Of a stretch of 64,000 nt of DNA, positions 4,976 to 58,487 are shown piece by piece. The notes beneath the pieces were generated by a model that saw only the letters and a list, made by a program, of their open reading frames with translations, had not been told where the DNA came from and made no database searches. This stretch comes from Candidatus Enterousia sp. Lineage in GTDB: Bacteria; Pseudomonadota; Alphaproteobacteria; Rs-D84. The stretch spans positions 10,996 to 74,995 of the forward strand of contig JAZQRR010000034.1 in the NCBI GenBank assembly GCA_045629645.1. Reading direction: 5' to 3'. Made by a program: the position numbers and the translations under genes. The number at the start of each line of letters is the position of its first letter. The first letter of the stretch is position 1.

Positions 4976-5887
4976 TTAATTATTTGTTATCACGTTCGTT
5001 TGTGCATCTTCGACCACAACAGTCAAAGATTCCCACGATTTTTTATCCGCATCGTACACATACATCCCTGTACCCGCCGGTGCCTGCAATCCACCAGACG
5101 ACATTACTTCTAATCCTTCAACGCGTGCCGACAATTCATCCAATTCAGACTGTTCTGCCTTGGACGCCAAATCCGTTTTATCCGCTTTACCTTCCAACAA
5201 GGCACCAACAATACTGTTTACATAACCTTCAACAACCGAATCCAAGCCCTGAATTGCATCCTCTATCTTCGTCAAGCGTTCTTCTAAGTCTGTTACATCT
5301 TGAATACCGGAAACATTGATTTCAACCCCGTTAACCGTCAACCTTCCATCAACTTCATCAAATTCAAGACTGTCAACATCCTGTAATTTCTCTTTAACTC
5401 TTTCTAACTGGGCAATAACAGAATCTGCATTTTCAAACCCAACAAAGTCCTTGATATCATCAATATTATTTACAACATTGGTCAAATCCTGCTTAATATC
5501 CGAAATTTCATTTTTCACTTCCGTCACATCAACAGACGAACCACCAACAATTGGCTTTGAAACAGAACCTGTCGCCGCACTAGTCCCCGCCAGATAACGA
5601 CCGATTGACAAACGTGGCGTCGCAGCAGCACGCGACGAAGAAACACGCGTATTCGACAACGACCCCGAACCAGATGTAGTACGAGCCGCCCCAACACGGG
5701 TTGCGCCAGTTGCCCCATCAGACACACTTGTACCACCCGACTTGGCAGTAGCCGCACTGGCCGCACTGGAATACGTACCAGCACCACCCAACGAACGAAC
5801 CGAAGACGCCGCAAACGCAGGCATTGACATCACCGCACACAGTACGCTGACAATAGATAATGTTGATATTCTAAAATTATGTTTCAT
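4976..5887 (-). CDS. Secreted Ser/Gly/Thr-rich plus coiled-coil protein, paralogue 4 (divergent)
   Basis: Signal peptide MKHNFRISTLSIVSVLCAVMSMPAFA, then a low-complexity S/G/T/A region and a coiled coil. It shares the LEGKADKTDLASKAEQSELDEL motif with paralogues 2 and 3. Confidence 0.6.
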   Translation of the reverse strand: MKHNFRISTLSIVSVLCAVMSMPAFAASSVRSLGGAGTYSSAASAATAKSGGTSVSDGATGATRVGAARTTSGSGSLSNTRVSSSRAAATPRLSIGRYLAGTSAATGSVSKPIVGGSSVDVTEVKNEISDIKQDLTNVVNNIDDIKDFVGFENADSVIAQLERVKEKLQDVDSLEFDEVDGRLTVNGVEINVSGIQDVTDLEERLTKIEDAIQGLDSVVEGYVNSIVGALLEGKADKTDLASKAEQSELDELSARVEGLEVMSSGGLQAPAGTGMYVYDADKKSWESLTVVVEDAQTNVITNN

Positions 5888-5966
5888 GTCCTCTCTCTAC
5901 TGCTGTTTATTATACCATTTTTGCGAATCGGGCGCAACTGTTTTTTATCCCAGAAAACCGCACCTT

Positions 5967-6662
5967 TTAGAAATTATATTTCAAGCCAATAGATACACTA
6001 TTATCTAATATAAGCCCTATTTCATTTTTAAATTCATACCCATAGGTATCTATGCGCTTATGTTCTGTACCCATCAGTCCCGCCAAACGATAACGAATAT
6101 CTAATGTCAAATTATAATCCAATTTATGAGAATAACCCAACATCACACCAACAATTGGCGAAACCCTACTTTCTTTTCTGTCACCCCCAACAAAATAATC
6201 TCCATCTAATTCCGTTGTTGGCAATGCAATACCCGCACCTGCACCAACATACAAACCATTCAAGAAATCATAATATCCATTAAACATCAAATAAGGCACA
6301 GTCAGTTTAAAAGTATTTTGATGATCTTTATCTTCAAAGACACCTAACATACCAGCTTCAACTTCGCCACGCCAAAAAGCGTCAAAACTGTAACCAAAGA
6401 ACACATCTCCACCAAATAACACTTCGAACGAATATTTATCAGAATCCTTGTCACCCAATTCTGTATGTGAATATTCATTTTCCCAATTCATCATATTCAA
6501 AGACAAATGACCACCAATATACCATCCACTTTTTGCCTTGTCCGTATAATCATACGTTACATTATATGCACCAGCCCCCGTACGCTGAATATAGCTGGGT
6601 GCAGCATTTGCCGCAACAGTAGCCATAATCCCCATAAATGCATAGCCTAAAACTTTTTTCAT
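5967..6662 (-). CDS. Small outer-membrane beta-barrel protein (OmpA/opacity-porin-like)
   Basis: Start at ATG 6662..6660, preceded by a GGGAGG RBS. Signal peptide MKKVLGYAFMGIMATVAANA, alternating amphipathic beta-strands, and a C-terminal ...GLKYNF with terminal Phe. Confidence 0.6.
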   Translation of the reverse strand: MKKVLGYAFMGIMATVAANAAPSYIQRTGAGAYNVTYDYTDKAKSGWYIGGHLSLNMMNWENEYSHTELGDKDSDKYSFEVLFGGDVFFGYSFDAFWRGEVEAGMLGVFEDKDHQNTFKLTVPYLMFNGYYDFLNGLYVGAGAGIALPTTELDGDYFVGGDRKESRVSPIVGVMLGYSHKLDYNLTLDIRYRLAGLMGTEHKRIDTYGYEFKNEIGLILDNSVSIGLKYNF

Positions 6663-6801
6663 GACAATAATCCTCCCTAATTTTTTCATAAGTATATCAT
6701 AAAAACACATTAATTCCAAAACATAAAAAACATATATTGACATTTTTTTGCAAATTATGTTTAATTAATATTAACAAAAAAATTATTCAGGGAGTATCTT
6801 C

Positions 6802-13533: not shown

Positions 13534-13560
13534 AAAAAATCCGGCAATGCCGGATTTTTT
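13534..13560. terminator. Bidirectional terminator
   Basis: aaaaaatccggcaatgccggatttttt: a perfect hairpin flanked by A-run and T-run. Confidence 0.6.
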
Positions 13561-13909
13561 ACCATGATTTAAACGCACCTGAGCATTCTAGTGAACCGTT
13601 TGGACCAGCTGCACTAATAAAGAAGCTTAATACCGCGCCAATACTGAACAACAACACAAAACCAACCAACATACCAACGCCTTTTTCTTTAAATTTATCC
13701 AGCTTAACATCACCTGGTTTTGAAATAAATTCCCATGCCCATTGTGCAATCAAGAAACCCGCACCAATAAACGCCAATGTACGCAATGTTTTCAACAGAT
13801 CACCCAGCTCTTTAATCAAATTACACAGACCGTCATTCGCCATTGCCGGTGCAACAGATGCCATAATTGCAATCAGCGCAAAATTTATTTTATTTGTAAT
13901 TTTTTTCAT
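13559..13909 (-). CDS. Small secreted two-TM protein, VirB2/TrbC-pilin-like (tentative)
   Basis: Long signal peptide MKKITNKINFALIAIMASVAPAMA. The mature part has two hydrophobic segments (TLAFIGAGFLIAQWAW; VGMLVGFVLLFSIGAVLSFFISAAG) separated by a charged loop. This is the topology of T4SS pilins. Confidence 0.3.
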   Translation of the reverse strand: MKKITNKINFALIAIMASVAPAMANDGLCNLIKELGDLLKTLRTLAFIGAGFLIAQWAWEFISKPGDVKLDKFKEKGVGMLVGFVLLFSIGAVLSFFISAAGPNGSLECSGAFKSW

Positions 13910-13997
13910 AAAAATCCCCCTTTTCTTCCCCATATTTTACCATAAAAAATACCGCAATTCAAATAATAATACAAAAAAACCGCCAAACGGCGGTTTA

Positions 13998-21248: not shown

Positions 21249-21713
21249 TTATTCACCATATACAATTTGCACAGAATTCATACCATCTGTTTTTGAACAA
21301 TCGCTTGACGCCCCACCTGTTTTACCACCAGAAATTCTATATCCAACAGAATCAGACCAAGCTTTGGCACGCAGCGATTCGCATTCCGATTGCCCCAGTC
21401 CGTCAATCGTCAACACAAACTGACGCGGATTACTTGGGTCAACAGACAACGAATAAGAACCACCATACGGATTTTTATCCGACACACCAATTGCGCTGAA
21501 AATAGTAGCACCGTTCATATTAGAAAAATCATCATATTCCGCATGAATATTTCTGACCATTGTGACGATTTGCATAACTTCATCATTTACCGCTGTCAAC
21601 TTTTGTGTTCTCATTGCGGTTGAAATCATACCAATGGCACCAACTGTTATCACCCCCATAATTGCCAACACGCCCAACATTTCTATCATAGAACGACCGG
21701 ATTCTTGTCTCAT
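21249..21713 (-). CDS. Prepilin-type (type IV pilin/pseudopilin-like) protein, solitary
   Basis: N-terminus GRSMIEMLGVLAIMGVITVGAIGMI: Gly, then Glu at +5, then a ~20-aa hydrophobic helix (class III signal). The C-terminal Cys pair (SEC...SSDC) resembles a pilin D-region. The +1 residue is atypical. Confidence 0.45.
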   Translation of the reverse strand: MRQESGRSMIEMLGVLAIMGVITVGAIGMISTAMRTQKLTAVNDEVMQIVTMVRNIHAEYDDFSNMNGATIFSAIGVSDKNPYGGSYSLSVDPSNPRQFVLTIDGLGQSECESLRAKAWSDSVGYRISGGKTGGASSDCSKTDGMNSVQIVYGE

Positions 21714-28037: not shown

Positions 28038-30851
28038 TTATTCTTTTTTCACACACTTGCCATTGGTTAAATCATAACCATCAACACACTTGGTTATTTT
28101 ACAAGCCGACCAATCGCGCCCCGCCCAAGTTTGTGTCGCACTTGCCGCATTTTCTGGCATATCTGGACAAGTTCTGATTTCAGGGTCACATTTTTTTCCA
28201 TCTGTATTCTTTTCATACATATTATCACATGCAACAACCATACAATCAGTATAAGTTCCATCTGCTTTCAATGTCTGCTTTGCGCTTTTTGCATTAGTGA
28301 TAGCACACTCAACCTCTTCCTTTAAACACTGGTTATTAATATTCTTATAACCTGTTCTACATTGTGAAATCACACAATCTCCCCAATTACTGCCGTTCCA
28401 AGTCTTTACTCCTTGGTCACCGTTATTATCCAGGCACCCCCGTGTTTCCGGCACACATTTATTACCATCTAAATTGTAATGATCTTTACATGTTGTTATC
28501 ACACAGCTGCCCAACGTACCATTTTCTATGGTTGCATACGCTTCTGCAACACCAACCAGATCTCCTGAACAATCAACCTTGGTTCTTTCTTCACATTTAC
28601 CATCTTTCAAGATATAACCATCATTACATGCTGTTGCAACACAAACACCATTCGAATTCTTGTAGCCAGATTTTGCATTAGATGGCAATTCACCCAACTT
28701 GCATCTTTGTTCTGTTGAAATATCTGCAGACCAGTTACGGATATCTGCAACACCAGCATCCAACAAACATTGTTCACGCATAGACGCTGAATTACCAGAC
28801 GCATTCAACGCAATATTTGCTGCACCAGAACCTGTACCATTCAAAATTTCATTTAATGTTACAACATTACGGCATGTATTCTTGGTGTAATCTTGATTAT
28901 TCGAACAACTGTTGCTATCCGCCACATCTATAACTGCCTTGAATTGTGCCGTCGAAGGATTACAAATCATTTCTTCATAACAATGCGGAACATTTGCAAT
29001 CTGGGCACAGTATGTTTTGATACGTGCATCAGGCCAGTTTGGTTCGCTGTCTGCTGTACTTTCATAACAGTCATAAATTTCACTTAAACATTCGTTAAAG
29101 TTCGTACCAGCCTCAATCGCAGCAGTCAAAATTTCTTCTTCTTCTTCTACTGCAAATTCCAGACGTTTTTGTTGCAAGGCTTGTTGTGCTGCAACCTTTT
29201 GATACGCAATATTTTGTGCAGTCGCACGCAGTTGTTCACCATACAAATCGCAATCTGCATTGGCGTCCAACAAATACTTATTCATAATACTGCGACGTGC
29301 ATCCGCAACAGGACCACGCAGATTTGAATAAGGATCCCCAGATGTTGTTGTATAACCAAAACATGACGCACTGGCATTTATAGAACCTGTTGATGTTGAA
29401 CCACGTTCATTCAACGCAATTTCACCAGACGCATTAACATCAATTTTGGAATTATAATTGAACGGACAATTAGAAGACTGACCGTTTGCACACTTGCCAC
29501 CGAACGATGCTGGCGAACCACAAGATTCATAAATACCATTAAAGCAAGAATCCAAGACACGACCACAAACTTCGTTATGCGCATGCGCAAACAGTTGATA
29601 CCCCCATGTATTTGCCAATGTATCTTTGGATTCTTCTGTAACTGACAAAGAAGACCCCAGCCCAGCCAATCCATTAACAACACCAGAAACACCTTCGAAC
29701 GCACTTAACAAAGAATCGTCATTATCTGTCAGGATTGTGATTGTATTTTCTTTGGCCTTGGCCCATGCCTGCAAGTTCGCCAAAATATCAGAACCACTAC
29801 CATTTAAATTCTTGATATCAAAACCAAAATTGTTATTTGAACAGTATTCAGGTTGATTACAAGAAGAAACAACACTTCCATTATTAAATATACCATGCGA
29901 CGAACACCAATCTACCGCCTCTTGCGAAGAAACGCCATGTTCATTTGTAACCTCGCGCCAGGAAACACAGTTCATAACCTGTTCTGCTTCGGTCAACTGG
30001 AACGCATCAGAAACATCTTTACCCCTGTTTGCAATCAACAATGCCAATTCACCAGACGCCTTGATTAATTCTTCATTTGCTGTTTCCAACGCTGCTTCTG
30101 CTTCTGCAAACGCGGTGACACGACCAGCGCATGCACAACGACGCTGTGCCTGATTACGTGCAGTACAAATTTCGTCCATACACGCATAATAAGATTCCAA
30201 ACAATTATTAAACGCATCTGTTGAAATCAAACCGGTTGTTGAATCGATAATATTTGAATAATTCCCCGTATATAATTTATTTGTCAGATAAGAATAAGTT
30301 GTACCACCGGAACTCTTAGAACCACGAATCGCACTACCCTGCAAAGAAACACGTGCAGCATCTGAGTCAACCGCTGTACGTGCACGCACATTACGATTAT
30401 TTGCCGCAGTTGTTCTGTTTGTAACAACCGCACTGCGCGAAACTACATTTCTTTTATTTTCTGTTTGTGCACGGGATGCAGTTGCACGTGAATTTGTTGT
30501 ACGTGACGCAACCGCACGTGTTGCCGCAGCACGAGTTGCATTTGCACGTGCATTACTTGCACGGGCTGTTGCTGTACGGGCAGATATTGCTGGTGTTGCA
30601 ACCGTTGTTCTGGCGACATTAGCACGCGCAGTCGCACGATTACGTGGACTTTCACGCAATGCCGCGCCACGCGCATTACCAGCCGCAACCTGCTGTTGCA
30701 TTAAAACCATCGGGTCATTAATTGGCGCAATTGGATCTGCCAACACAGTACGCATTGACACAAATGTCGAACAAACCAAGAACGCCCCCAACAACAGACA
30801 CGCTGTTCCAATTGCATTCTTAACAGAACTTACGATTTTTTGACTTATCAT
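28038..30851 (-). CDS. Large secreted cysteine-rich modular protein (937 aa)
   Basis: The signal peptide is followed by an Arg/Ala/Thr-rich low-complexity repeat (TARASNARANATRAAATRAVASRTT...). Then come a coiled-coil segment and about five C-terminal ~50-aa Cys modules of the pattern W-G--W--C-I--C--GY-L----C. Confidence 0.6.
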   Translation of the reverse strand: MISQKIVSSVKNAIGTACLLLGAFLVCSTFVSMRTVLADPIAPINDPMVLMQQQVAAGNARGAALRESPRNRATARANVARTTVATPAISARTATARASNARANATRAAATRAVASRTTNSRATASRAQTENKRNVVSRSAVVTNRTTAANNRNVRARTAVDSDAARVSLQGSAIRGSKSSGGTTYSYLTNKLYTGNYSNIIDSTTGLISTDAFNNCLESYYACMDEICTARNQAQRRCACAGRVTAFAEAEAALETANEELIKASGELALLIANRGKDVSDAFQLTEAEQVMNCVSWREVTNEHGVSSQEAVDWCSSHGIFNNGSVVSSCNQPEYCSNNNFGFDIKNLNGSGSDILANLQAWAKAKENTITILTDNDDSLLSAFEGVSGVVNGLAGLGSSLSVTEESKDTLANTWGYQLFAHAHNEVCGRVLDSCFNGIYESCGSPASFGGKCANGQSSNCPFNYNSKIDVNASGEIALNERGSTSTGSINASASCFGYTTTSGDPYSNLRGPVADARRSIMNKYLLDANADCDLYGEQLRATAQNIAYQKVAAQQALQQKRLEFAVEEEEEILTAAIEAGTNFNECLSEIYDCYESTADSEPNWPDARIKTYCAQIANVPHCYEEMICNPSTAQFKAVIDVADSNSCSNNQDYTKNTCRNVVTLNEILNGTGSGAANIALNASGNSASMREQCLLDAGVADIRNWSADISTEQRCKLGELPSNAKSGYKNSNGVCVATACNDGYILKDGKCEERTKVDCSGDLVGVAEAYATIENGTLGSCVITTCKDHYNLDGNKCVPETRGCLDNNGDQGVKTWNGSNWGDCVISQCRTGYKNINNQCLKEEVECAITNAKSAKQTLKADGTYTDCMVVACDNMYEKNTDGKKCDPEIRTCPDMPENAASATQTWAGRDWSACKITKCVDGYDLTNGKCVKKE

Positions 30852-31021: not shown

Positions 31022-32293
31022 TTATTGAACACCTACACTAAATTCATCCCCCCAACCGGCGACAGACTGCCCACCGATTACACAATTAATATCTTCAAAA
31101 CCATCTTCTATCTGATGTTTTTTGATAACACTGCTGGTAATCAGACCACCTGCAGTTCCCAAAACAACCCCAGCGATGGAATCCGACGCCAAACGTGCAG
31201 TATTAAACTTACCTTCTTCGTCTTTCCAAACACTTACTTTAAATCCAGATTCAATATTCTTCAAAACGTTTTCAGCCGCCAAAATTGCCTTACGCGACGC
31301 CGATGTATCCACCGGCGTTGCTGCTTCAACAACAACTGTTACCTCATCGCTTTTTGTACACATAGCATTAACTAAACCTTGAACAGCTGCTCTCGTTTCA
31401 TTAAATTTTCCAACTGTCAAATCTGACTTTTCACACAACGCCTCAAACTTAGAAATTTCCACAAGAACATCCTGCGATGCCTTACATTGCACCTTCCAGG
31501 CACTAATCGTAACCCCAACACTGTCATCACATTGATACGATGCGTTCTCTTCACCCTTGACATTACAATAGCCCTGCAAACCATCATAAGAAAATTCTTG
31601 ATTTTGACCGACACAAACACATTGTGAACCGTCCCACTTTGCAACCGATAACGACAACGAACAACACGCCTTACCCTCTGCCGTTGTACGCGAATCTACG
31701 CAAGAAGTTTTATTTTCCCCTGGCTTTGGAGCTGGCATTGGAGCAGGCTTTGGAGCTGGCATTGGAGCTGGCTTTGGATCTGGCACAGGCTGTGTCTGCC
31801 CAGGTTTCTGACCATGGTCATAATAACAAAAAGCATCCTTAGAAGTAGACGTATAATACTGACTAGCCATATGAACCTTCGCCAACGAATTCGGAACATA
31901 AATATCATAATTACCATGTGTAGTAATTAACCGTTTACCATCAGTAGTACTACACTTGTTTAAACTAGTAGCGCCAACCGAGGCCCATGCATTTCCACCG
32001 CTGGTCGAACATCGATATATACCCACATCATCTTTTGTTTCATTATCCCACACATGAACACCTGTAATAACCGCAAAAGCACCTTCTTCACAAGAACCAT
32101 CTTGAAAGCCACCACAAATCAAAGCCAAACCATTGCTATCTTTGTAATCAGCCAGCGTAGGAAACAAATATTCATTAGAAGACTTCCACGAACTCCACCC
32201 AATATTTAACACTTTTGAACAATTATAGTTATCTGCCACTGCACCGGATACACAACCAAACAAAACCAATACAGACAATAAAATCTTCTTCAT
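31022..32293 (-). CDS. Secreted cysteine-rich protein with a Pro-rich (PAPKPAPM) linker repeat
   Basis: Signal peptide MKKILLSVLVLFGCVSGAVA. The DNA carries the 24-bp repeat ccaaagccagctccaatgccagct, encoding PKPAPMPAPKPAPMPAPKP. There are ~20 Cys residues. Confidence 0.55.
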   Translation of the reverse strand: MKKILLSVLVLFGCVSGAVADNYNCSKVLNIGWSSWKSSNEYLFPTLADYKDSNGLALICGGFQDGSCEEGAFAVITGVHVWDNETKDDVGIYRCSTSGGNAWASVGATSLNKCSTTDGKRLITTHGNYDIYVPNSLAKVHMASQYYTSTSKDAFCYYDHGQKPGQTQPVPDPKPAPMPAPKPAPMPAPKPGENKTSCVDSRTTAEGKACCSLSLSVAKWDGSQCVCVGQNQEFSYDGLQGYCNVKGEENASYQCDDSVGVTISAWKVQCKASQDVLVEISKFEALCEKSDLTVGKFNETRAAVQGLVNAMCTKSDEVTVVVEAATPVDTSASRKAILAAENVLKNIESGFKVSVWKDEEGKFNTARLASDSIAGVVLGTAGGLITSSVIKKHQIEDGFEDINCVIGGQSVAGWGDEFSVGVQ

Positions 32294-32381: not shown

Positions 32382-33662
32382 TTATTTATATTCACCAATC
32401 AACTGTTGAATCTGGGCGGACAAAACCAAATCTGACGCTTGTTGTTTTTCAATCTGTTTGATTGCATACAAAACTGTTGCATGATCACGACCACCAACAA
32501 AATTACCAATTTCTGTCAAAGACAAACCTGTAACATTCTTTAATACCACCATCATAATCTGACGCGCCAAAACCAATGAACGACTGCGACCATTACCACA
32601 TACTGCATCATAAGACACAGCCAACTTTTCACACATATCTTTAACCATCGCAGATGGTGTTTTTGTTTTCTGCAATGTATCTGCCAACAAACGCTGCGCA
32701 ACAGCCATATCAACCGCAGCACCCATCAAATCTGTATATGTTTTAATTTTTGTTGCAACACCTGCAATTAAATGACCATCATTTGCAATACGTGACGCAA
32801 TCGCATTCGCAACATCCATCGCAACACCTGCGCGCTGTAACATAACTGTTTTAACATGTGCATTTGGCGCACAAACATCTGCAACCAAACCAGACGCCAA
32901 CAAAGATTGTGCACGTCTGTCAAAACCTGTCATATTGTTTGGTGCCGCATTTGAAGTCAAAACAATATTCTTGCCTGCGTTACGCAAATCAACAACCAAT
33001 TGCAAGAATTCATCTGTTGAGGCTTTTTTACCAGACAAACTTTGAACATCATCCAAAATAAATGTATCGCAATTACGGCAAAAATCTTTGAACGCGAAAA
33101 TATTATGTTCTTTCAAGCTGCGTGTAAATTCAGAAACAAACTGTGCGCCACTCATCTTAACAACACGCCCCTGGGCCGCACCTGCGATACATTCTGTTAA
33201 CAATGTTTTACCGCAACCTGCCACACCATAAATAAACAGCGGAGAGAAAGGAACCTTACCCGCCGCCAATTTTTTGCACGCAGACAAAACAAACAAATTT
33301 TCATCACTAGCAACAAACGCATCAAACGCAATAGATGAATCTTGGGACGCAACAACTGGCGCATAAGCCTGTGCCTTGTTATCATTTGCAACTGCCGCAA
33401 CAGACTTAACCGCTGCACTGCGAACAACAACGCGCGCATCTAAACCAAATTCATGTGCAACAGACGCAATTACATTACCGTGAACACTGTTGATAAAATC
33501 TGCTGAAAATTGATTTTGCGCACCCAAAACCAATGTATTATCTGTAACATCAAATGTTAATGGTGCAATCCAAGAAGAAAAACTTGCAGAATCTATTTTT
33601 GCGGCAATGGCCCCCTTGATAACGTCCAAGTTAGTCATTTGAATTTTTGCCACTGTCTGCAT
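32382..33662 (-). CDS. dnaA: Chromosomal replication initiator DnaA
   Basis: AAA+ Walker A GVAGCGKTLL and the C-terminal DNA-binding helix (TEIGNFVGGRDHATVLYAIKQIE). An RBS AAGGAG sits 9 nt upstream of the ATG. Confidence 0.9.
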   Translation of the reverse strand: MQTVAKIQMTNLDVIKGAIAAKIDSASFSSWIAPLTFDVTDNTLVLGAQNQFSADFINSVHGNVIASVAHEFGLDARVVVRSAAVKSVAAVANDNKAQAYAPVVASQDSSIAFDAFVASDENLFVLSACKKLAAGKVPFSPLFIYGVAGCGKTLLTECIAGAAQGRVVKMSGAQFVSEFTRSLKEHNIFAFKDFCRNCDTFILDDVQSLSGKKASTDEFLQLVVDLRNAGKNIVLTSNAAPNNMTGFDRRAQSLLASGLVADVCAPNAHVKTVMLQRAGVAMDVANAIASRIANDGHLIAGVATKIKTYTDLMGAAVDMAVAQRLLADTLQKTKTPSAMVKDMCEKLAVSYDAVCGNGRSRSLVLARQIMMVVLKNVTGLSLTEIGNFVGGRDHATVLYAIKQIEKQQASDLVLSAQIQQLIGEYK

Positions 33663-34104
33663 GTCGTTTTCTCCTTTCCTTCCCTAAAAGAGTTTCCTGC
33701 CCAACTTACAAGGTTGCAAAAGCCACCCGCACAAAACTTAAATATTCTTGTTCAGAACATTTATTTTTATTGCCTACTTCTACTCTCTCGCTATTTGGGT
33801 TGGACACTCATGTTTAACTGATTCTTGTAAATCTGATGATTTTGAAACCAGACCCAGAACCCAGCACAAGTTTCCAAACCACAGACACATCTTTATTTTT
33901 CATCCCAACAAAGACGTATCTTTTTTTAAGCCCCAGTCACAAAACCAAGCCTTAAATTTTGATTGATTTTTTTATCTCTCAATCGGTTTTGGATACGTCA
34001 AATAATTTATAAGATAAAATTCGATTTACAACAAAATATTAACCAAAAAACGAAGATTTATTTTTTGACAACGATTCGTTTTTCTGGCTGTTTTCCGCCA
34101 TTTT

Positions 34105-34137
34105 GTATATACACTGTATATACACTGTATATACATA
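34105..34137. repeat. Three tandem copies of the perfect 10-bp palindrome TGTATATACA (11-bp period)
   Basis: The sequence is tgtatatacac tgtatatacac tgtatatacat. It lies in the dprA-dnaA intergenic region, immediately 3' of dprA. Confidence 0.8.
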
Positions 34138-34144
34138 AAAAACA

Positions 34145-35209
34145 TCAAGCACGAACATATCCGCCGTTAACTTTTCGCACCAAACCCTGCAATTCCAAGA
34201 CAACTAAAATTGACTTGATTTCCGAAATTGGTTTTTTGACAATTTCTGACAATACAGATTCCGATGCAGGAATATTCCCTAATATGTCAATAAGACTAAT
34301 TTCCGATTCGATTTTCGCTGATTTTTTTTCATCTTTTTTTATTTTTTTATCTGTTTGAAAAAAATCATCCGGCCCCATACATAATTTTGCATCACCGCTG
34401 CGAATTAATGAATTTGGTCCCAACGCCCTTGAATCCAAGGGGTGCGACGGAATCGCCCACAAATCACGTCCATAACCAATTGCGAATCGTGCCGTTGTCA
34501 TTGAACCAGACTTTAAATCAGCCTCGCCCAGGATAACTGTATCCGCCAAACCCGCAACCCATCTGTTACGCTGCACAAAATTATTTGCAACCGGCACGAA
34601 ACCAACAGGCATCTCGCTGACAATCGCACCACGTTCTAATATTTGATAATACAACGATTCGTTTTCCAGCGGCCAAATATAATCAACCCCACCCGCCAAA
34701 ACCGCAATCGTTTGCGCATCCCCATCAGCACGCAAGGCCCCACGATGCGCCGCCGTATCTGTACCAATCGCCATCCCAGACACAACCACACCAGAATTTT
34801 CTACAATCCGTTGTGCAATCGATGAAACCATCTCCATCCCCGCCGCAGTCGCATGGCGCGTACCGATAACAGAAAACATCTTTTTCGACAATACTTTTAA
34901 ATTTCCCCTGACTGATATCACAGGCGGATGATTTTTTACCCTGCGCAACGCATCCGGATACAACACATCATCATCAGACACATACACAACCCCCAACGCA
35001 CTGGCCCGCTCCATCTCACGCAATACCGATTCATGCACACCTGTATCTATTGACACAGCCCCTGCCGCAGCATCAACACTACCAAACTGCCTAACCAACT
35101 GCGCATAACGCACCGGTCCAACACCAGGGGTTCTTAATAACAACAATTTATTAAATAAATCTGACATAATATACAAGTATAAGGAAAAAATAATATCCTT
35201 TACCAACAA
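34145..35209 (-). CDS. dprA: DNA processing protein DprA (Smf)
   Basis: Rossmann-like DprA core (SGMAIGTDTAAHRGAL...TIAVLAGGVDYIWP) and an N-terminal SAM-like region. The start codon may be the internal Met (MSDLFNK, ~35167). Confidence 0.8.
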   Translation of the reverse strand: MLVKDIIFSLYLYIMSDLFNKLLLLRTPGVGPVRYAQLVRQFGSVDAAAGAVSIDTGVHESVLREMERASALGVVYVSDDDVLYPDALRRVKNHPPVISVRGNLKVLSKKMFSVIGTRHATAAGMEMVSSIAQRIVENSGVVVSGMAIGTDTAAHRGALRADGDAQTIAVLAGGVDYIWPLENESLYYQILERGAIVSEMPVGFVPVANNFVQRNRWVAGLADTVILGEADLKSGSMTTARFAIGYGRDLWAIPSHPLDSRALGPNSLIRSGDAKLCMGPDDFFQTDKKIKKDEKKSAKIESEISLIDILGNIPASESVLSEIVKKPISEIKSILVVLELQGLVRKVNGGYVRA

Positions 35210-35238
35210 AAAATCCGCGAACGCGGATTTTTATATTC

Positions 35239-36096
35239 TTAACTTGCTAAATCAAACAAACTATCATACTTAGTGCATATTGATTCTATTGCAGAATCAT
35301 CCGCATCATCCCATATATTTTTTTCACATTCTGCCTTTAACTTGCGTAAATTCTTGATATAATTATCGTATTCAGATGCATTTTCCTTGGCCAAGACAGA
35401 CAACTGTGAACGCAACAATTGATCACCCTGCAAAGACTTTTGACCTTCGACCTTGCCACCAATCAATTTATTTCCAAACAATTCCATTGCACCAACACCA
35501 ATACCTGCACCACCAACAACGCCACCAACAGTTCCCCACACACGCGCCGTCTTTTTAGCATCCAATATTCTCTGACGCAAAGTTTCTTCGTTCGCCCATG
35601 TTCCGCATGTTATACTGCGTCCCATTTCAAAATACTTACTTGGAATATCTGAAACATCAATTTTCGAATCGTTTGATTTTATATCAACCTTAACAAAACA
35701 AACATTATTTTCAGGTTCTTCCACGTCTTCTATCATCGTAGAATAATTATTCAAATTACTGTAACGTGACGCCCACACAAAAGTATTTCCCATACCAACA
35801 TTATTAGACATACATGCGTTACGTTCTTTTTCGCGCATATCTTTTTTAACCGCAGGAACCGCCTGTTCTGGTGTAATCGCCATACTACCAACTGCGATTG
35901 CCTGTTGCTGTGCCGAAACAGGGTTTGCCGTCATCGCCGCGGCCGCCAGTTGATTTTTCGATGCAACCACAGCACGAGCATCCGTATTAGTATAAGAATT
36001 TACCGACGCACGACCACGTGGATTATTCGGCGTCACCGCATCAGCAGCCCCCCCCAGAAACAAAATAGAAAAAAACACACTTATAAAATATTTCAT
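35239..36096 (-). CDS. Hypothetical secreted protein
   Basis: Signal peptide MKYFISVFFSILFLGGAADA. 285 aa with no recognisable motif. Confidence 0.45.
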   Translation of the reverse strand: MKYFISVFFSILFLGGAADAVTPNNPRGRASVNSYTNTDARAVVASKNQLAAAAMTANPVSAQQQAIAVGSMAITPEQAVPAVKKDMREKERNACMSNNVGMGNTFVWASRYSNLNNYSTMIEDVEEPENNVCFVKVDIKSNDSKIDVSDIPSKYFEMGRSITCGTWANEETLRQRILDAKKTARVWGTVGGVVGGAGIGVGAMELFGNKLIGGKVEGQKSLQGDQLLRSQLSVLAKENASEYDNYIKNLRKLKAECEKNIWDDADDSAIESICTKYDSLFDLAS

Positions 36097-36197
36097 ATCC
36101 TCTTCCCTTATTTGCCAATTCATTATACCACAAAAAGGCAAAAAAATAAAGCATTAATATAAATAAAAAAAAAGGGGCACACAGCCCCCTTGATATA

Positions 36198-36785
36198 TTA
36201 TTTTTTCCACTTCCACTCTATTTTTGATTCTGTTCCACTTATCAAACGTTTAATATTTTCGCGATGACGCCACATGCACAGCAACCCGATTGCCAAGAAC
36301 ACCCAACCAAAATTCCAACCCAAAATAAACCCCAGTACAGGAATCTGACAAAATACAACCGTCGCCCCAAACGAAGATTTACCACTAGTTAACGCAACCA
36401 CCAGCCACTCAATCGCACATATAACAAACGCAATCGGACTGACCGCCAGCAAAACACCAAACATCGAAGAAATTCCTTTACCCCCCTTGAACTTTAACCA
36501 CACAGGATAACAATGCCCAACAATCGCAGCAAATCCACACCATGCACCGAACACATCACCTGCAACATATCTGCCTATAAACACAGCAATAATCGCCTTG
36601 GCCATATCCAGCAACCACACAGCCCCAGCCATACGCAATCCACCGACACGCATAACATTTGTTGCCCCAATATTACCACTGCCAACTTTGCGCAAATCAC
36701 CCTTGCCCATCATTTTTGTCAGCAACAAGCCCATTGGCACAGAACCCAACAAATAAGAAATAATTAAAGTAATTAAGTAAGTCAT
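36198..36785 (-). CDS. plsY: Glycerol-3-phosphate acyltransferase PlsY
   Basis: GSGNIGATN motif and multi-TM topology. Confidence 0.85.
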   Translation of the reverse strand: MTYLITLIISYLLGSVPMGLLLTKMMGKGDLRKVGSGNIGATNVMRVGGLRMAGAVWLLDMAKAIIAVFIGRYVAGDVFGAWCGFAAIVGHCYPVWLKFKGGKGISSMFGVLLAVSPIAFVICAIEWLVVALTSGKSSFGATVVFCQIPVLGFILGWNFGWVFLAIGLLCMWRHRENIKRLISGTESKIEWKWKK

Positions 36786-36858
36786 GTTATTTTTCCTTGA
36801 TTTTATGTTTGTTTTTTATAAAATACCAGAATCAAAACAAAAATAAAAGGAAAATAAC

Positions 36859-37119
36859 GTGGCAAATCATAAGTCATCTGATAAAAGAATTTTGGTAACT
36901 GCCAAAAAGAACGCAATCAATACTGCACGTCGCAGTGCGGTGAAAACCGCCACTAAAAAGGCATTGGTTGCAATTGAATCTGGCGACAAGGCTGCTGCAA
37001 CAACAGCAATGCGCAACGCAGAAAGTAAAATCATGAAATCTGCTGGTAAAATTATGCCAAAGAAACGCGCAGCTCGCAAGATTTCACGTTTGGCGAAAAA
37101 AATGTCTAAAATGGCATAA
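36859..37119 (+). CDS. rpsT: 30S ribosomal protein S20
   Basis: 86-aa basic protein; MANHKSSDKRI...AKKNAINTARRSA is a typical bS20. Confidence 0.9.
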   Translation: MANHKSSDKRILVTAKKNAINTARRSAVKTATKKALVAIESGDKAAATTAMRNAESKIMKSAGKIMPKKRAARKISRLAKKMSKMA

Positions 37120-37132
37120 CCAAGAAGTCTTA

Positions 37133-37168
37133 TAAAAAAAATCCCCGATTGGGGATTTTTTTTATATT
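37133..37168. terminator. Rho-independent terminator after rpsT
   Basis: aaaaaaaatccccgattggggatttttttt. Confidence 0.6.
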
Positions 37169-37180
37169 TTTATAATCCAA

Positions 37181-37429
37181 CAGACGTTTAGATATCTTGC
37201 CAACACCGCTTGTAGATGTGCTTTGCCATAAATAAATTAGAACGATTTAGATACAAGTAGTGCCAGCAACGTAGTGTACAGAAGTTACATGAGCCATCGG
37301 GACCGACCGTAGATATGCCTTATTATAAATAAATTAGAATGATTTAGATAAAAGTAGTGCCGGCAACGTAGTGTACAAATGCTACATGAGTTGCCGGCAC
37401 CGCTTGTAGATAAATTATTATAATTTATT
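37181..37429. repeat. Second locus of the same palindromic repeat family (2-3 copies, first copies degenerate)
   Basis: It contains ...TTAGAATGATTTAGATAAAAGTAGTGCCGGCAACGTAGTGTACAAATGCTACATGAGTTGCCGGCACCGCTTGTAGATAAATTATTATAATTTATTTT, near-identical to the 15.45-kb locus. It ends exactly at the stop codon of the secretin gene. Confidence 0.85.
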
Positions 37430-39064
37430 TTAGTTCAGAGGCGCACCCCAATGCTGCTGAATACTACGTTCTACATCCATTGGGCTAACCAAAACTTGCG
37501 GTGTCAAGATAACAACCAATACTTCACGGGTTGCAGATGTTTCGCGAGAACCAGACAATGCCATAAAGTCAGGGTCGCCTAAACCATATCTGGTGTCTTC
37601 ATTGGTCTGTTTTTCAAAACCAGAAACAACCAACATTTGACCAGATTCCATAATAACTTCTTGCATAAAGCTACGTTCTTCTACTTCTGGTAATTGCAAT
37701 GTTACTTCGCCGATTGTTTGGGTTGACATACGCAACAATTCACGCACAGACATACGGAACAACAGCAAAATCTTGCCATTTTCTAAAACATTTGGCAACA
37801 ACTGCATTGTAAAACCTGTTTCCAAATCATCTTGATCAACAGTACTTGATTCAACAGTTGTAAAGTTTCTGGATTCAAAACGTTTAATATACCCTGTTGT
37901 ACGTGTATTGCTGACCGGTGCGACACGATTACTGCGGGTTGTTACACCAACATTTGTAACCAAAGATACCTTGCCCTGCTTTGCTAATGCCTCTATCAAA
38001 GCACTACTGCCTGCGACACCAGACAATGAACCGTTCATAATATCATCCGCGCTATATGCACCATCAACAGTTACGCCATTTTCTACGTGTGTTGCCCCAG
38101 TCAACGCCGAAACAGCATTAGACAATACCGCAATATTCATAGAACTTGCTTCTGTTGATGCCAAATTATTCTTTGGATTTGCAACAATATTTAATCCTGA
38201 TGTAGAATTAATTGCGGCCGCCAAATTCAATCCGAACGCAGAATCATTAGATATAGTAACCTGCAAAACCTTGACATCAATTGTAATTAATTGGCTAAGA
38301 CGTTTATTTTGTTTTTCAATATACTCCCCAACACGCGCCAGAACAGATGGAGCTGCCGTTACAGTTATTGTCCCTAAACTGCGAGACACGGTAAAATCTG
38401 CATTTTCACTTTTTCCGATAATTGAAGAAATTGCATTTTCTACTTCATCCCACTCTTTCAATGTAGATTCCAACGAAACTTCGTTCGCGTTATCTGTTGA
38501 TACAGATGTTTGATATGCAACCTCGGTTCCCAGGGCATACAAAGTAAATGTTTTTGTTTCTGTTTCATAGAATACAATCGAATTTTTATCATAATACCAC
38601 AATAAATCCAAATCAGTCGCAACCTGAGACAATAAACCAGACAATTTTCCTGTATAAGCAACATTAACTGTCTTGCGCAATTTATCAGCTGCGATTTGAC
38701 TGTCTATTTTCACAGGAATACCTGTTACAGAATAAATATCATTTGCCAACACCTGCAATGAAACAGGTTCGTTCAACAAAATTGTAACACCTGTATCTGA
38801 TTCAAATTGTTTTGGCAAATTATTACGATGTTCCAAAACAGTAGATTTATTTCCCAGCCAAATTCCTTCGGACATAGAAACAGTATCACCCGTAGCAACC
38901 TTGGCACGTGGATTTTTCGCCATTTCAAACGCATCATACGCATTAATAAAATCCTGATCAACGGATGCCGCAACCTTGGCAGATTCTTTTTTTGCACACG
39001 CTGTTACCGCCACCAGAACTAACGCACACAAACCAAATAACTTGATAGCTTTTTTCATATTCAA
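37430..39064 (-). CDS. Secretin-family outer-membrane lipoprotein (type IVb pilus TcpC/BfpB/PilN-like)
   Basis: Lipobox LVAVTAC. The C-terminal secretin domain motif is VVSGFEKQTNEDTRYGLGDPDFMALSGSRETSATREVLVVILTPQVL (the G-G--------G-P-L--IP-LG-LF------R-EL-I-ITP pattern). 544 aa. Confidence 0.7.
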   Translation of the reverse strand: MNMKKAIKLFGLCALVLVAVTACAKKESAKVAASVDQDFINAYDAFEMAKNPRAKVATGDTVSMSEGIWLGNKSTVLEHRNNLPKQFESDTGVTILLNEPVSLQVLANDIYSVTGIPVKIDSQIAADKLRKTVNVAYTGKLSGLLSQVATDLDLLWYYDKNSIVFYETETKTFTLYALGTEVAYQTSVSTDNANEVSLESTLKEWDEVENAISSIIGKSENADFTVSRSLGTITVTAAPSVLARVGEYIEKQNKRLSQLITIDVKVLQVTISNDSAFGLNLAAAINSTSGLNIVANPKNNLASTEASSMNIAVLSNAVSALTGATHVENGVTVDGAYSADDIMNGSLSGVAGSSALIEALAKQGKVSLVTNVGVTTRSNRVAPVSNTRTTGYIKRFESRNFTTVESSTVDQDDLETGFTMQLLPNVLENGKILLLFRMSVRELLRMSTQTIGEVTLQLPEVEERSFMQEVIMESGQMLVVSGFEKQTNEDTRYGLGDPDFMALSGSRETSATREVLVVILTPQVLVSPMDVERSIQQHWGAPLN

Positions 39065-39088
39065 TCTCTCCCTTGGGACACTGCCATA

Positions 39089-39976
39089 TTATTGTTCACC
39101 TGTTGATATTACTAACACCCTATTTCCCTTGTAGAATTTAGCATAAGGTATTGGTGTTGCACGACCAAAATTACGAACCAACGCAGACGCCACATCAACA
39201 AAACGTCCCTTGAACACTGCACTTGCTTCTATTGGATATTCACGTGCAGTTGCCCACACCAAATCCCAACCTTCTTTATCACACCAATCTTGCAAAACCT
39301 GACGCAAAGTCTGTCCATTTGCAACAACCCAAGAACGCACCTGATCAGTCATACTTGCTGGCGCTTCTGCATCAGCAGACACATCAACCGCAATTTCTGT
39401 ATCACTTGTTTGTTGTTTTTCTTCAACAATCATCCCCATTTTCTGTGCAAACGCATCATATCCATCAGCATATTTTCCACAGTTTTTACGTCCGCTGCGC
39501 GACACAGTCAACACATTACCACCATCATCTTCTAAAACTTCGCGATGCAACAATGGCATTTCAGAATTATTATTACATTCATCATCAAAACCAACAGGAA
39601 TCTGATTACCATGCAACATATTTGCACCACCAGACCAACCAGAAAATTCCCCACGAGTCCCCATATTTATATTGTTTTCAACAATCAAATCGGCACCAAT
39701 CTTAGAAACAATACGAATATTGTCTGAACTTTCAGATCTTGAACAATTATTCATTTCACAACTAACCTCGACATCTGCATCTGACCCAACCAATGGCCAC
39801 GCAGGCACATCACGATAAGTTTCAACAACATCAATTTGTTCCTGAATATCATCATTCACAAATCTTTCCTGTTCATAAATAACTTCTGATGTTACAACTT
39901 GGGGCAACATATCGTTCGCACTACAATACCCCGCCGCAGTGGCAAACATCGCGAAAATCAAGACTTTGCGAAACAT
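39089..39976 (-). CDS. Secreted protein with a C-terminal TcpQ/PilL-like domain (putative secretin partner)
   Basis: Signal peptide MFRKVLIFAMFATAAGYCSA. The C-terminus W--ANGQTLRQVLQDWCDKEGWDLVWATAREYPIEASAVFKGRFVDVASALV...KFYKGNRVLVI fits the conserved TcpQ/ICE PilL pattern recalled from memory (GW-LVW...Y-I-A---F-G-F--A...Y-GNRVL-I). It lies 24 bp upstream of the secretin gene. Confidence 0.45.
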   Translation of the reverse strand: MFRKVLIFAMFATAAGYCSANDMLPQVVTSEVIYEQERFVNDDIQEQIDVVETYRDVPAWPLVGSDADVEVSCEMNNCSRSESSDNIRIVSKIGADLIVENNINMGTRGEFSGWSGGANMLHGNQIPVGFDDECNNNSEMPLLHREVLEDDGGNVLTVSRSGRKNCGKYADGYDAFAQKMGMIVEEKQQTSDTEIAVDVSADAEAPASMTDQVRSWVVANGQTLRQVLQDWCDKEGWDLVWATAREYPIEASAVFKGRFVDVASALVRNFGRATPIPYAKFYKGNRVLVISTGEQ

Positions 39977-40151
39977 AAAACTTCCTTTCCCTAAAAAAAT
40001 AACCTGTTATTTTATGTACATTATAACAATTTGACCGAATCTGTGCAAGACTTAAAAAAACTCAAAAAAGATAAAATCGTACGAATCGCAAAAAGTATGT
40101 TATACTAGACGTTGAAAAACACAAAAAACATATAACAAAAGGCACACAAAC

Positions 40152-40694
40152 ATGACAAATTTATTCTTATTTATCTTGCTGGGACTGACTATTATTTTGT
40201 TTTCACTGACATTTGTGTACATATACAAGATTAACACACGTGTTGCCAACATAACAAAAACTATCGAACATCAATATAACCTGATTGTAAAAATCCAATC
40301 TGTTTTGAAAAATAAATCCGCGACCAATGCCATTGCCGAAAACGCTGAAATGATTTACCAAGACTTATTACAAAGCCTGATTCCGATAATGGCAGCTATC
40401 GACATAATGCCACGCACTACCCAAGAACACCCACTGTGGCGGGCACTGGGGGGAATTCTAGATGAATACGCAAAAAACCCATTTGCGCTTGAAAAACTAC
40501 GTCGCAGCATAAAACTGGACTCTGAAATTGCACGCAATGTCGATAATTATATGCGACGCGCCGATACATTTTTACATCATTTAACAACAACAGAACCTGA
40601 CGGCCTATTATCTTCCACCTTTACAGACGGTCTGCTGGGACAATCTTTGACATTTTTTGCCCAGGCAAAACAATTGGCAATGCAAAGTAACTAA
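40152..40694 (+). CDS. Hypothetical membrane-anchored protein
   Basis: N-terminal TM (LFLFILLGLTIILFSLTFVYIY) followed by a helical domain. It ends 10 bp before sufB. Confidence 0.4.
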   Translation: MTNLFLFILLGLTIILFSLTFVYIYKINTRVANITKTIEHQYNLIVKIQSVLKNKSATNAIAENAEMIYQDLLQSLIPIMAAIDIMPRTTQEHPLWRALGGILDEYAKNPFALEKLRRSIKLDSEIARNVDNYMRRADTFLHHLTTTEPDGLLSSTFTDGLLGQSLTFFAQAKQLAMQSN

Positions 40695-56919: not shown

Positions 56920-57534
56920 TTAATCATAGAAATCATCACCACCACTGGTTGATACAGTCTTGTGTCGTTGTATTTGAAAGTAATCCTTGCCAAACTTTGT
57001 TTTTTCTTTTAAATCACGAAACACAACATCTGTTACCGCCCCTGTTGCATCAACAACAGTCCAAGAATTTAATTTCACAGGACTTTTATCAAACACAACT
57101 GTCATATTTCCCAAACCTTCTTGACCACGCAGATTCATTTTCAAAGAAAAAGAATTATCATAATTTTTTGTTTCAACAATATTTATATCTGCATTTTTTA
57201 AATCAATATTTTTTCTTATTAAAATTCCTGCTGGTGTACTGGTCAATGGAACAGTTGTAATTTGATCCAAAGATTTATCAAAGAAGTACAAATCATTACC
57301 ATCAGAAATTAATTGCACAGGCATATTATCATAATCCAAACGAACACGACCTGGGCGCAACATAGAAAAATGCCCCTGTTGTTTATTTCCATTTGCATTT
57401 TGCACAAAAATTCCATCCAAGCCCGTAATTGAATTCAAATATTTTTCTGCTTGAACGACTAAATTATTATCAATCGCCGCATACGACACGCCACAAAAAA
57501 GCATCATCCCCAACACAATCAAACACCTTCTCAT
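56920..57534 (-). CDS. lolA: Outer-membrane lipoprotein carrier LolA-like protein
   Basis: Signal peptide. The G-F-Q...RPGRVRLDY...ISDGNDLYFFDKSLDQIT pattern resembles LolA. Confidence 0.55.
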   Translation of the reverse strand: MRRCLIVLGMMLFCGVSYAAIDNNLVVQAEKYLNSITGLDGIFVQNANGNKQQGHFSMLRPGRVRLDYDNMPVQLISDGNDLYFFDKSLDQITTVPLTSTPAGILIRKNIDLKNADINIVETKNYDNSFSLKMNLRGQEGLGNMTVVFDKSPVKLNSWTVVDATGAVTDVVFRDLKEKTKFGKDYFQIQRHKTVSTSGGDDFYD

Positions 57535-58487
57535 ACACACTCTCCTTTAAACAATTCTAAAACCCGTTCGCGCACTTTATACAAAGAATCACGTACAATT
57601 GCACCTGCTGCACGTTCATGTCCACCGCCACCCAACGCGACCGCCAATCCATCTATTGGTTTTGCCCTGCTACGTATTGATATTCCAATCTGTTCTGCTT
57701 TTTGTTCTTTCAACAAAACGACAAAATCCACACCTTGGATTTGCGCCAACAAATTCAACACTGTTTCACCACGTCCATCCAGATGTTTATAATCCTTTTT
57801 TTCAATTGTTGCCAACGCCAAACGACCGCCATAAAAGAATTCTGCACAGGCTGTTACGCGTGCTTCTAATTGAACCGCCTTGCGTGGTTTGTTATTCATA
57901 ATTTCTATTAAATTTCTGATATTAACACCCGCATCTACCAATTCTGCCATTATTCGCAAGGCATCCCCATTTCGCACGAACTTAAAATTTCCGGTATCAG
58001 TCAATATTGCCAACGCCAACAAATCTGCCGTATTAGTGTTCATTTTTAAATTTTCTTGAACTATCATTTTATAAACAATAACCGCAGTTGCCGCAGCATT
58101 ATCATCATTTAAGCACAAATTTCCAACAAGACTATCATTTTTATGATGATCTATTTCTACAATAAATTTAGCATTATCAAGAATTGCTTTTGGTCCACCG
58201 ATATGCGCAGGATTTCCATAATCCATAACAATTACCAAATCAAAAATCTGGGACATATCCACGCGTTCAAAGTATTTTATATGGCTACGCAATGGCACGC
58301 CATCCAAACAATCTGGAATATTACCATCATAAACACACACTGGGCGCACACCAAAGTTTTCTTGAATAACATTTGCCAACGCCAAAACACTGCACAAAGA
58401 ATCACCATCTGGATTTTTATGTCCCATAATCGCAATTGTTTTTGCATTTTTTACATATTCAAAAAAATCTTTTATTTTATCTTTCAT
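57531..58487 (-). CDS. nrnA: DHH-family phosphoesterase (NrnA-like oligoribonuclease/pAp phosphatase)
   Basis: DHH motifs (IAIMGHKNPDGDSL; DHH at EIDHHKN) and a DHHA1 C-terminal GGGH. Confidence 0.7.
   Translation of the reverse strand: MKDKIKDFFEYVKNAKTIAIMGHKNPDGDSLCSVLALANVIQENFGVRPVCVYDGNIPDCLDGVPLRSHIKYFERVDMSQIFDLVIVMDYGNPAHIGGPKAILDNAKFIVEIDHHKNDSLVGNLCLNDDNAAATAVIVYKMIVQENLKMNTNTADLLALAILTDTGNFKFVRNGDALRIMAELVDAGVNIRNLIEIMNNKPRKAVQLEARVTACAEFFYGGRLALATIEKKDYKHLDGRGETVLNLLAQIQGVDFVVLLKEQKAEQIGISIRSRAKPIDGLAVALGGGGHERAAGAIVRDSLYKVRERVLELFKGECV

Follow-up and report, generated by a model that had tools for sequence, protein, structure and literature searches.

The lipoprotein secretins of type IVb pili are represented by BfpB, TcpC and the PilN proteins of R64 and of integrative and conjugative elements (ICEs). 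Closest to the locus described here is the BfpB-BfpG complex of enteropathogenic Escherichia coli (EPEC), solved with 17:17 stoichiometry as Protein Data Bank (PDB) entry 9u5s, in which BfpG adopts an N0-like fold and forms a hoop around the N3 ring of BfpB (PMC12531336). BfpG contacts the beta1-linker-beta2 segment in BfpB's LG domain, and the linker I46-Y47-I48-G49 is functionally essential for BfpG binding (PMC12531336). Here, we analysed a stretch of 64,000 nucleotides from Candidatus Enterousia sp. (contig JAZQRR010000034.1), called the window throughout, in which an earlier note had pointed out an isolated lipoprotein secretin gene next to a gene for a TcpQ/PilL-like protein. It is, in our judgement, very probable that in Candidatus Enterousia this pair forms the outer-membrane half of a dispersed type IVb pilus (T4bP) machine encoded on the chromosome.

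The host belongs to the order Rs-D84 and has genomes of 0.75-1.0 Mb; it lacks the tricarboxylic acid cycle, respiration, standard transporters and nucleotide biosynthesis and is thought to depend on a partner, and the study that describes it mentions type IV pili for another lineage only (PMC12306168). Our literature search on Rs-D84 pili and on the outgroup assemblies used below found nothing. Enterousia, an alphaproteobacterium not yet in culture, is widespread in the gut of humans and livestock.

The secretin and its TcpQ-family partner

The two genes and the layout of their products are as follows.

37430..39058, minus strand: type IVb secretin, predicted lipoprotein, 542 aa from ATG, with Pfam Secretin, TIGR02520 and BfpB matches
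39089..39976, minus strand: TcpQ/BfpG-type secretin partner, 295 aa, with Pfam TcpQ and BfpG matches
Secretin layout (aa): lipobox with Cys21; LG helix 22-48; motif resembling the BfpG-binding region, DTVSMSEG(I/V)WLG, 58-69; N0 about 80-175; N3 about 200-275; clade-specific insertion about 300-345; secretin domain 359-525
Partner layout (aa): signal peptide; conserved N-terminal region with WPxxGS and GWSGGA; acidic linker of variable length; TcpQ domain about 206-295

Both open reading frames (ORFs) lie where the earlier note had placed them. The mechanical ORF list gives the secretin as 37430-39064 on the minus strand with a TTG start, from which the 544 aa of that note derive, but an ATG lies two codons in, at 39058, and all database orthologues are 542 aa long and begin at its equivalent. 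The stop of the partner ORF is 24-30 bp ahead of the secretin start. At the N-terminus of the secretin a signal peptide is followed by the lipobox V-T-A-C21, and alignments show Cys21 to be invariant in 84 Enterousia sequences and 19 divergent relatives. The protein thus carries the lipobox of the type IVb lipoprotein secretins (BfpB/TcpC/PilN), and lipidation is predicted.

The 542-aa protein is a member of the secretin superfamily: Pfam Secretin (PF00263) matches residues 359-525 with an E-value of 2.3e-13 and 50.5 bits against a cutoff of 27.5, covering model positions 1-168 of 169. The lipobox and the secretin domain read from the letters both stand. The best NCBIfam model by far is TIGR02520, the PilN type IVB secretin (1e-69, 235.5 bits; the next model, MshL, reaches 96.8 bits), although the score lies under the model's cutoff, which marks the protein as a divergent relative and not an equivalog by the NCBI rule. 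No GspD or PilQ match appeared in the NCBIfam scan, Pfam Secretin_N gave only an E-value of about 0.9, and none of the loci viewed showed a gsp or pilMNOP gene. The secretin is therefore not a GspD, as in type II secretion systems (T2SS), or a PilQ, as in type IVa pili (T4aP). Those secretins are not lipoproteins, and they carry N0-N1-N2-N3 (GspD) or AMIN (PilQ) domains.

Relative to its relatives at 35-42% identity, the Enterousia secretin carries an additional insertion of about 35 aa (LSNAVSALTGATHVENGVTVDGAYSADDIMNGS; aa about 300-345, window 38020-38160), which is 86% conserved inside the genus. It is placed between N3 and the secretin domain, where the AlphaFold2 (AF2) model has a predicted local distance difference test (pLDDT) score below 40.

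The upstream protein belongs to the TcpQ/BfpG family (PF10671), since Pfam TcpQ matches residues 214-291 at 1.4e-17 and 64 bits against a cutoff of 27 (model 1-78 of 80). Both proteins thus exceed the Pfam thresholds, and the absence of homology that the earlier note had named as a possible refutation did not arise. The assignment to the TcpQ family holds, but the likeness to PilL does not: no NCBIfam family, and hence no PilL model, matched at E<=1, and tblastn with IncI PilL found a match confined to the TcpQ domain (0.004). A signal peptide of the signal peptidase I type is present without a lipobox; its end reads ...AAGYC(S/F)A, in which the Tyr at -1 of the Cys does not suit a lipobox. 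The partner is therefore not an ICE/R64 PilL lipoprotein and is closer to BfpG/TcpQ, given that both the PilL match and the lipobox are lacking. Among Enterousia species its length ranges from 293 to 579 aa owing to the acidic linkers. The WPxxGS and GWSGGA motifs of its N-terminal region are common to distant relatives, and in the TcpQ domain the sequence equivalent to beta3/beta5 is invariant in the alignment.

Both proteins lead to the same solved structure. When phmmer was run against all PDB sequences, the secretin matched BfpB (9u5s chain A, 5.6e-43), aligned from the LG domain through the end of the barrel, and the partner matched BfpG (9u5s chain R, 3.7e-15); these partner chains of a single complex were the sole PDB sequence matches below E=0.01. 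The AF2 model of the secretin has a mean pLDDT of 63, with 70-89 in the N0, N3 and barrel regions and with the long beta-hairpins present. In Foldseek it matched 40 secretin structures, 9u5s_A on top (6.3e-33, TM-score 0.55/0.63), followed by a secretin at 7.7e-18 and TM-score 0.29, and the type III secretion system (T3SS), T2SS and T4aP secretins scored 7.7e-18 or worse. By sequence and by predicted fold, then, the nearest solved structure is a type IVb secretin, including the LG and partner-binding segment. For the partner, the AF2 model is confident solely for residues 212-295 (C-terminal domain pLDDT 60-78), which superpose on 9u5s_R, in accord with an N0-like fold, with a TM-score of 0.75, a root-mean-square deviation of 2.9 A and 35% identity; pLDDT stays below 50 in residues 1-211. 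The input alignment for AF2 was shallow (72-89% identity).

In the pairwise alignment, I-Y-I-G of BfpB aligns with I-W-L-G (within E-G-I-W-L-G) of the window secretin. The corresponding motif D-x-(I/V)-W-L-G is conserved across the subfamily alignment and nearly invariant in the 84 Enterousia sequences. Together with the adjacency of the TcpQ and secretin genes in 82 of 82 informative loci, this conserved binding motif gives a context in which the two proteins may be expected to bind one another.

All close homologues of the pair come from metagenome-assembled genomes of uncultured gut Alphaproteobacteria, and the species representatives are Candidatus Enterousia. A scan of the genome collection with a 6-sequence alignment gave 419 loci, of which the best 80 are all Enterousia. 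The secretin ORF is intact in each of 83 Enterousia loci, with a TcpQ ORF immediately upstream in 82 and a contig end in the remaining one. The pair is under strong purifying selection. Against the window copy, the secretin has a median ratio of nonsynonymous to synonymous substitution rates (dN/dS) of 0.055 and the partner one of 0.139; as dS is saturated at about 1.3, these estimates behave like upper bounds. Against the closest species, the ratio is 0.024. Within the partner, the nonsynonymous difference (pN) is 0.066 in the TcpQ domain, as constrained as the secretin, versus 0.215 in the N-terminal region.

Inner-membrane genes in relatives and within the genus

The earlier note had found no ATPase or platform gene in the 64 kb, and this was borne out. 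Pfam scans of about 40 further window ORFs revealed no ATPase, platform, PilO/PilP or prepilin peptidase gene in the window, and searching it by tblastn with proteins of the Bfp, R64 Pil and Enterousia PilOPQR sets did not turn up a further gene for pilus assembly either. Relatives outside the genus were sought in the full library at 50% clustering, where the nearest non-Enterousia sequences have 35-42% identity; five of them were looked at. In all five (P0122, P0123, P0124, P0125 and P0130; 35-40% identity), the pair heads a contiguous operon with housekeeping genes around it, in the order TcpQ protein, secretin, PAP_PilO (PilO2), PilP-like protein, T2SSE ATPase and T2SSF platform. The PilP-like protein in outgroup locus L084 is a TIGR03021 match. 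This is the pilL-(M)-N-O-P-Q-R order of the IncI/ICE thin pilus, of which the pair makes up the first two genes, and the synteny check thus supports the pilus assignment.

Within Enterousia, tblastn with the outgroup proteins against the window and 83 loci found one PilO2 gene, in locus L054, where it shares a contig with the pair and begins 9 kb away. With this PilO2 fragment as query we obtained 877 PilO2 clusters, some named by NCBI 'type 4b pilus protein PilO2', a number similar to those of the secretin (846) and TcpQ (1143). The genus has a four-gene operon (L089-L092) of pilO2 (420 aa), pilP (220-233 aa, with a TIGR03021 score at the cutoff), ATPase (543-545 aa) and platform (357 aa), and no secretin was found within 10 kb of it. 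The ATPase resembles BfpD (33%, 7e-77) and the platform BfpE (31%, 4e-58), with lower resemblance to R64 PilQ/PilR. Locus L092 is contig JAZTWE010000001.1, of 43 kb, which also carries the pair (L048) about 14 kb away, so that pair and inner-membrane genes co-reside on one contig in two species. The contiguous operon of the relatives and the separate, secretin-less four-gene operon of Enterousia indicate that an ancestral six-gene operon was split in the Enterousia lineage, and this genus-specific split is probably why the pair looks isolated. The genetic link to T4bP inner-membrane genes accordingly takes the form of one operon in five outgroups and of a separate operon in other genomes of the genus.

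The earlier note had asked whether an operon elsewhere in the genome would claim this secretin as an ordinary GspD or PilQ. An operon that claims it does occur in the genus, but as a type IVb inner-membrane half and not as a T2SS or T4aP. Outer-membrane core of a dispersed type IVb pilus, one of the two readings offered there, is thus supported by the outgroup operons and by the separate four-gene operon.

Two observations adjoin this subject. A gene for a conserved small lipoprotein (124-146 aa, MKK..LAACGG, no family match) lies immediately upstream of Enterousia pilO2 and after lpxK-lpxC (L089-L091, 9435-9875; L054, 18834-19208), and could encode a further machine component. In the P0125 genome (L103, 2281-5317), a second, short secretin of 341 aa with a T4b-like barrel directly follows a gene for a 661-aa TPR protein, upstream of uvrC and about 5 kb from the six-gene operon. 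Two 154-aa ORFs beside the L103 operon were considered as pilins and set aside, as they are not homologous to the prepilin-like protein of the window, which is given below.

21249..21713, minus strand: candidate pilin, 154 aa, with a class-III signal motif and a weak Pfam N_methyl match (0.0057)

The motif scan found the sole class-III signal motif of the window here, and the gene is therefore as solitary as the earlier note had described it. Its product has the leader MRQESG, a G followed by RSMIE (Glu at +5), a hydrophobic helix and two C-terminal Cys (D-region-like). The gene is kept beside uvrC/rluD in other Enterousia, with 82% identity in L092, where pilOPQR is 5 kb away; its product may be the pilin of the T4bP machine.

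Weighing of the explanations and a proposed mechanism

Several points weigh against assigning the pair to a type IVb pilus. The 235.5 bits of the secretin lie under the TIGR02520 trusted cutoff of 287.65, outside the curated equivalog definition. AF2 models the secretin with moderate confidence (mean pLDDT 63) and the partner's first 211 aa with poor confidence, and the predicted binding of the two draws on homology to one solved complex. Genes for a prepilin peptidase, a lytic transglycosylase, a minor pilin or a retraction ATPase were not seen in the loci read, and tblastn of all Enterousia loci with BfpP, PilU, pilins, BfpH/PilT, BfpC, BfpU and PilM gave no match. The pilOPQR genes are neither in the window nor in the roughly 8 kb further right and few kb left that contigs with the same edge genes add, about 77 kb of the window's own genome in all, so their presence in this genome is extrapolated from congeners. 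The window covers positions 5449-69448 of a contig of 129,925 bp, and the sequence read past its edges has just housekeeping genes. Classical type IVb pilins have long leaders, unlike the sole pilin-like gene product here, whose type IVa-like leader comprises 6 residues, with Arg at +1.

This leader, which resembles those of type IVa pilins and pseudopilins, also favours a different filament machine. In that case the pair would be the pore of a competence/DNA-uptake system or of a T2SS-like pseudopilus built from the prepilin at 21249-21713, and its T4bP likeness would be ancestral only. The gene dprA lies 2.2 kb from the pair, comEC lies 0.8 kb downstream of the pilus operon in the relative L087, and DNA uptake would be useful to a host without nucleotide biosynthesis and standard transporters (PMC12306168). 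However, five outgroup genomes have the pair in one operon with the PilO2, PilP, ATPase and platform genes, no secretin gene belonging to the Enterousia pilOPQR operon lies within 10 kb of it, and a second ATPase/platform set was not seen. We thus regard a different machine as quite improbable; a role in DNA uptake would in any case fit the same T4bP and is not a rival to it. A very improbable reading, in our estimate, is the second one of the earlier note, in which the pair is a repurposed, free-standing secretin channel that serves as a nutrient or macromolecule pore without pilus machinery. It accords with the lack of assembly genes in the window, with a host devoid of standard transporters (PMC12306168) and with the insertion of about 35 aa that is specific to the clade and lies close to the gate-proximal region. 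It was nevertheless left unsupported once the cognate inner-membrane operon proved to be kept across the genus, on the same contigs; moreover, the motif for BfpG binding and the TcpQ partner show the conservation found in systems that form pili, and an ungated secretin would breach the outer-membrane barrier.

That the pair is a decaying, functionless remnant of an integrated conjugative element or an R64-ICE thin-pilus cluster is scarcely credible. The order of the TcpQ and secretin genes and the PilO2/PilP families are of the IncI/ICE thin-pilus type, and scattered VirB-type type IV secretion system (T4SS) genes occur in the clade. Both ORFs, however, are intact in every uncut species locus with dN/dS of 0.05-0.14 at saturated dS, and the proteins resemble Bfp components more than R64 ones. 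Housekeeping genes flank the pair, its GC content equals that of its surroundings, and there is no integrase or tRNA border; with the strong selection, these features led us to reject a mobile-element remnant. Considered as well was a T4SS (VirB7/DotD-like N0 lipoprotein) identity of the pair, which is ruled out by the full secretin barrel of the 542-aa protein.

For the dispersed T4bP machine that we favour, we propose the following mechanism. The secretin would be exported, lipidated at Cys21 and sorted by the Lol pathway (lolA lies at window positions 56920-57540) to the outer membrane, where it would oligomerise into a gated beta-barrel channel. The upstream protein would be secreted to the periplasm, and its C-terminal N0-like TcpQ domain may clamp the LG segment of the secretin (DTVSMSEGIWLG) by beta-strand augmentation, gripping the LG segments of two neighbouring subunits. 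By analogy with 9u5s, physical binding at 1:1 would give a hoop around the N3 ring that stabilises the assembly of the multimer, as BfpG does for BfpB. PilO2, PilP, the GspE-family ATPase and the GspF-family platform, encoded by four inner-membrane genes in an operon of their own elsewhere on the Enterousia chromosome of about 0.9 Mb, would build a fibre that passes through the secretin gate.

Such a pilus would most likely serve to attach the bacterium to a partner or host cell, and DNA uptake is possible. Export of a soluble factor or protein is another possible use; TCP, the toxin-coregulated pilus, exports TcpF, a soluble factor. Cooperation with the scattered VirB-type T4SS is possible too. 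More tentative, and in our view rather unlikely, is a broader proposal in which the T4bP is the core cell-contact organelle of Enterousia and of the wider Rs-D84, a fixed minimal six-gene system for attachment and DNA/metabolite uptake, possibly domesticated with the VirB-type T4SS from a conjugative element. The hypervariable N-terminal part of the TcpQ protein and the secretin insertion would then be pore adaptations, and an analogy may be drawn with the type IV pili of epibiotic Patescibacteria. If this proposal were true, the pilus would be a key organelle of partner contact and uptake in the transporter-poor, non-respiring Rs-D84 bacteria.

In every species examined, Enterousia keeps, under strong purifying selection, what looks like a full type IVb pilus core of six genes or more; this gives it a candidate route for cell contact or macromolecule uptake, and the analysis marks proteins that NCBI often labels 'hypothetical'. 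What is new here is, modestly, a divergent chromosomal BfpB/BfpG-type pair; a T4bP core under strong selection in a genus with genomes of about 0.9 Mb, for which pili are unreported in the literature searched; a genus-wide split of the T4bP operon into an outer-membrane and an inner-membrane unit; and a wider clade of compact six-gene chromosomal T4bP operons amid housekeeping genes and off mobile elements.

Surroundings of the pair and comparison with known systems

The pair is flanked by rpsT and plsY on one side and by a 180-aa ORF with sufB/sufC on the other, in agreement with the rpsT/plsY and suf flanks given earlier. The remaining features of the window are listed here.

40020..40047, minus strand: promoter-like site, TGCACA-16-TATAAT with a TG extension, 10/12 in a consensus scan; pattern match only
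37131..37166, no strand assigned: symmetrical A-run/GC-stem/T-run hairpin from a terminator scan; pattern match only
13559..13933, minus strand: VirB2/TrbC-shaped small protein with a signal peptide and two transmembrane segments

The promoter-like site lies 44 bp upstream of the start of the TcpQ-like gene, in a divergent intergenic region of 175 bp shared with the 180-aa/suf genes; the count of such sites in the region is not above the shuffled expectation. The hairpin lies 264 bp past the secretin stop, where the secretin gene and rpsT converge, and is likely, from its pattern, to be a bidirectional terminator that closes a two-gene transcription unit. Divergent from the pair and 10 bp upstream of sufB, the 180-aa ORF (40152-40694, plus strand) encodes an N-terminal transmembrane helix, has no family match and occupies the same position in Enterousia loci L001-L003.

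Gene order around the pair differs among Enterousia. The window has pair-rpsT-plsY-x-dprA-dnaA, and species with 91% identical secretins have pair-170aa-parE/gyrB-like-dnaJ, which suggests that these small genomes often rearrange around dnaA/gyrB (window 34000-40000 against L001-L003, L054 and L092). Between dnaA and the parE/gyrB-like gene, the window encodes two large secreted Cys-rich proteins without a family match, of 937 aa (28038-30851, minus strand; C-terminal Cys-repeat modules) and 423 aa (31022-32293, minus strand). The same position holds a 590-aa DUF5874 protein gene in L092 and lpxK-lpxC-pilO2 in L054, and the region beside dnaA is therefore variable across species. GC skew is negative throughout the window (1-64000, cumulative -6.7); since its sign does not change at dnaA (32382-33662), dnaA is not the skew switch here.

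The small VirB2-like protein of the earlier note retains its shape, but HMM scans of it gave no match. It shares 51% identity with an ORF in L092. VirB3/VirB4 genes lie 6 kb from pilO2 in L091 (922-3695), and TrbC and VirD4 genes lie directly upstream of the pilus operon in L087 (6612-9215); the clade seems to have a scattered P-type T4SS that is often a neighbour of T4bP genes. Near the start of the window (2104-6743, minus strand) are four tandem ORFs of 140, 352, 394 and 303 aa with signal peptides, a common N-terminal motif A(A/V)V(T/P)SKAYVD and long Ala/Thr/Gln-rich coiled-coil-like repeats, without a Pfam match. An outer-membrane-protein beta-barrel-like ORF follows them at 5967-6743, and together they look like a paralogous surface-protein family.

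Compared with known systems, the pair is functionally and structurally of the BfpB/BfpG (TcpC/TcpQ) type, with the operon architecture PilL-PilN-PilO2-PilP-PilQ-PilR. It shares with EPEC BfpB-BfpG (9u5s) a lipoprotein secretin with an LG helix, a beta1-linker-beta2 segment (IYIG in BfpB, IWLG here) and N0, N3 and secretin domains, as well as a partner with an N0-like TcpQ domain (35-40% identity, TM-score 0.75) whose gene is immediately upstream of the secretin gene, as in pilL-(M)-pilN. It differs in that identity to BfpB is just 26-27% and that BfpG has 133 aa as against 295 aa here, which include about 180 aa of conserved N-terminal region together with linkers that vary. Whereas the 14 bfp genes, among them those for pilins, peptidase and retraction ATPase, form one plasmid operon, the Enterousia genes are chromosomal and form at least two units, with PilO2/PilP in place of the mid-component BfpC/BfpU.

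The TcpC/TcpQ system, compared via the Pfam model only, likewise combines a lipoprotein secretin with a periplasmic TcpQ-family protein needed for secretin stability, and the Pfam TcpQ family is named after this partner of TcpC. In the tcp operon, tcpQ and tcpC are not known to be neighbours in this order. With the R64/IncI and ICE thin pilus, the six-gene operon of the relatives shares the order PilL-(PilM)-PilN-PilO2-PilP-PilQ-PilR and the PilO2 (PF06864) and PilP (TIGR03021) families, and PilN TIGR02520 is the best NCBIfam model of the secretin. Unlike in R64 and ICEs, the Enterousia genes are off a mobile element and lack pilM, pilS/T/U/V are not adjacent, the TcpQ protein has neither the lipobox nor the NCBIfam match of PilL, and the secretin scores under the PilN cutoff.

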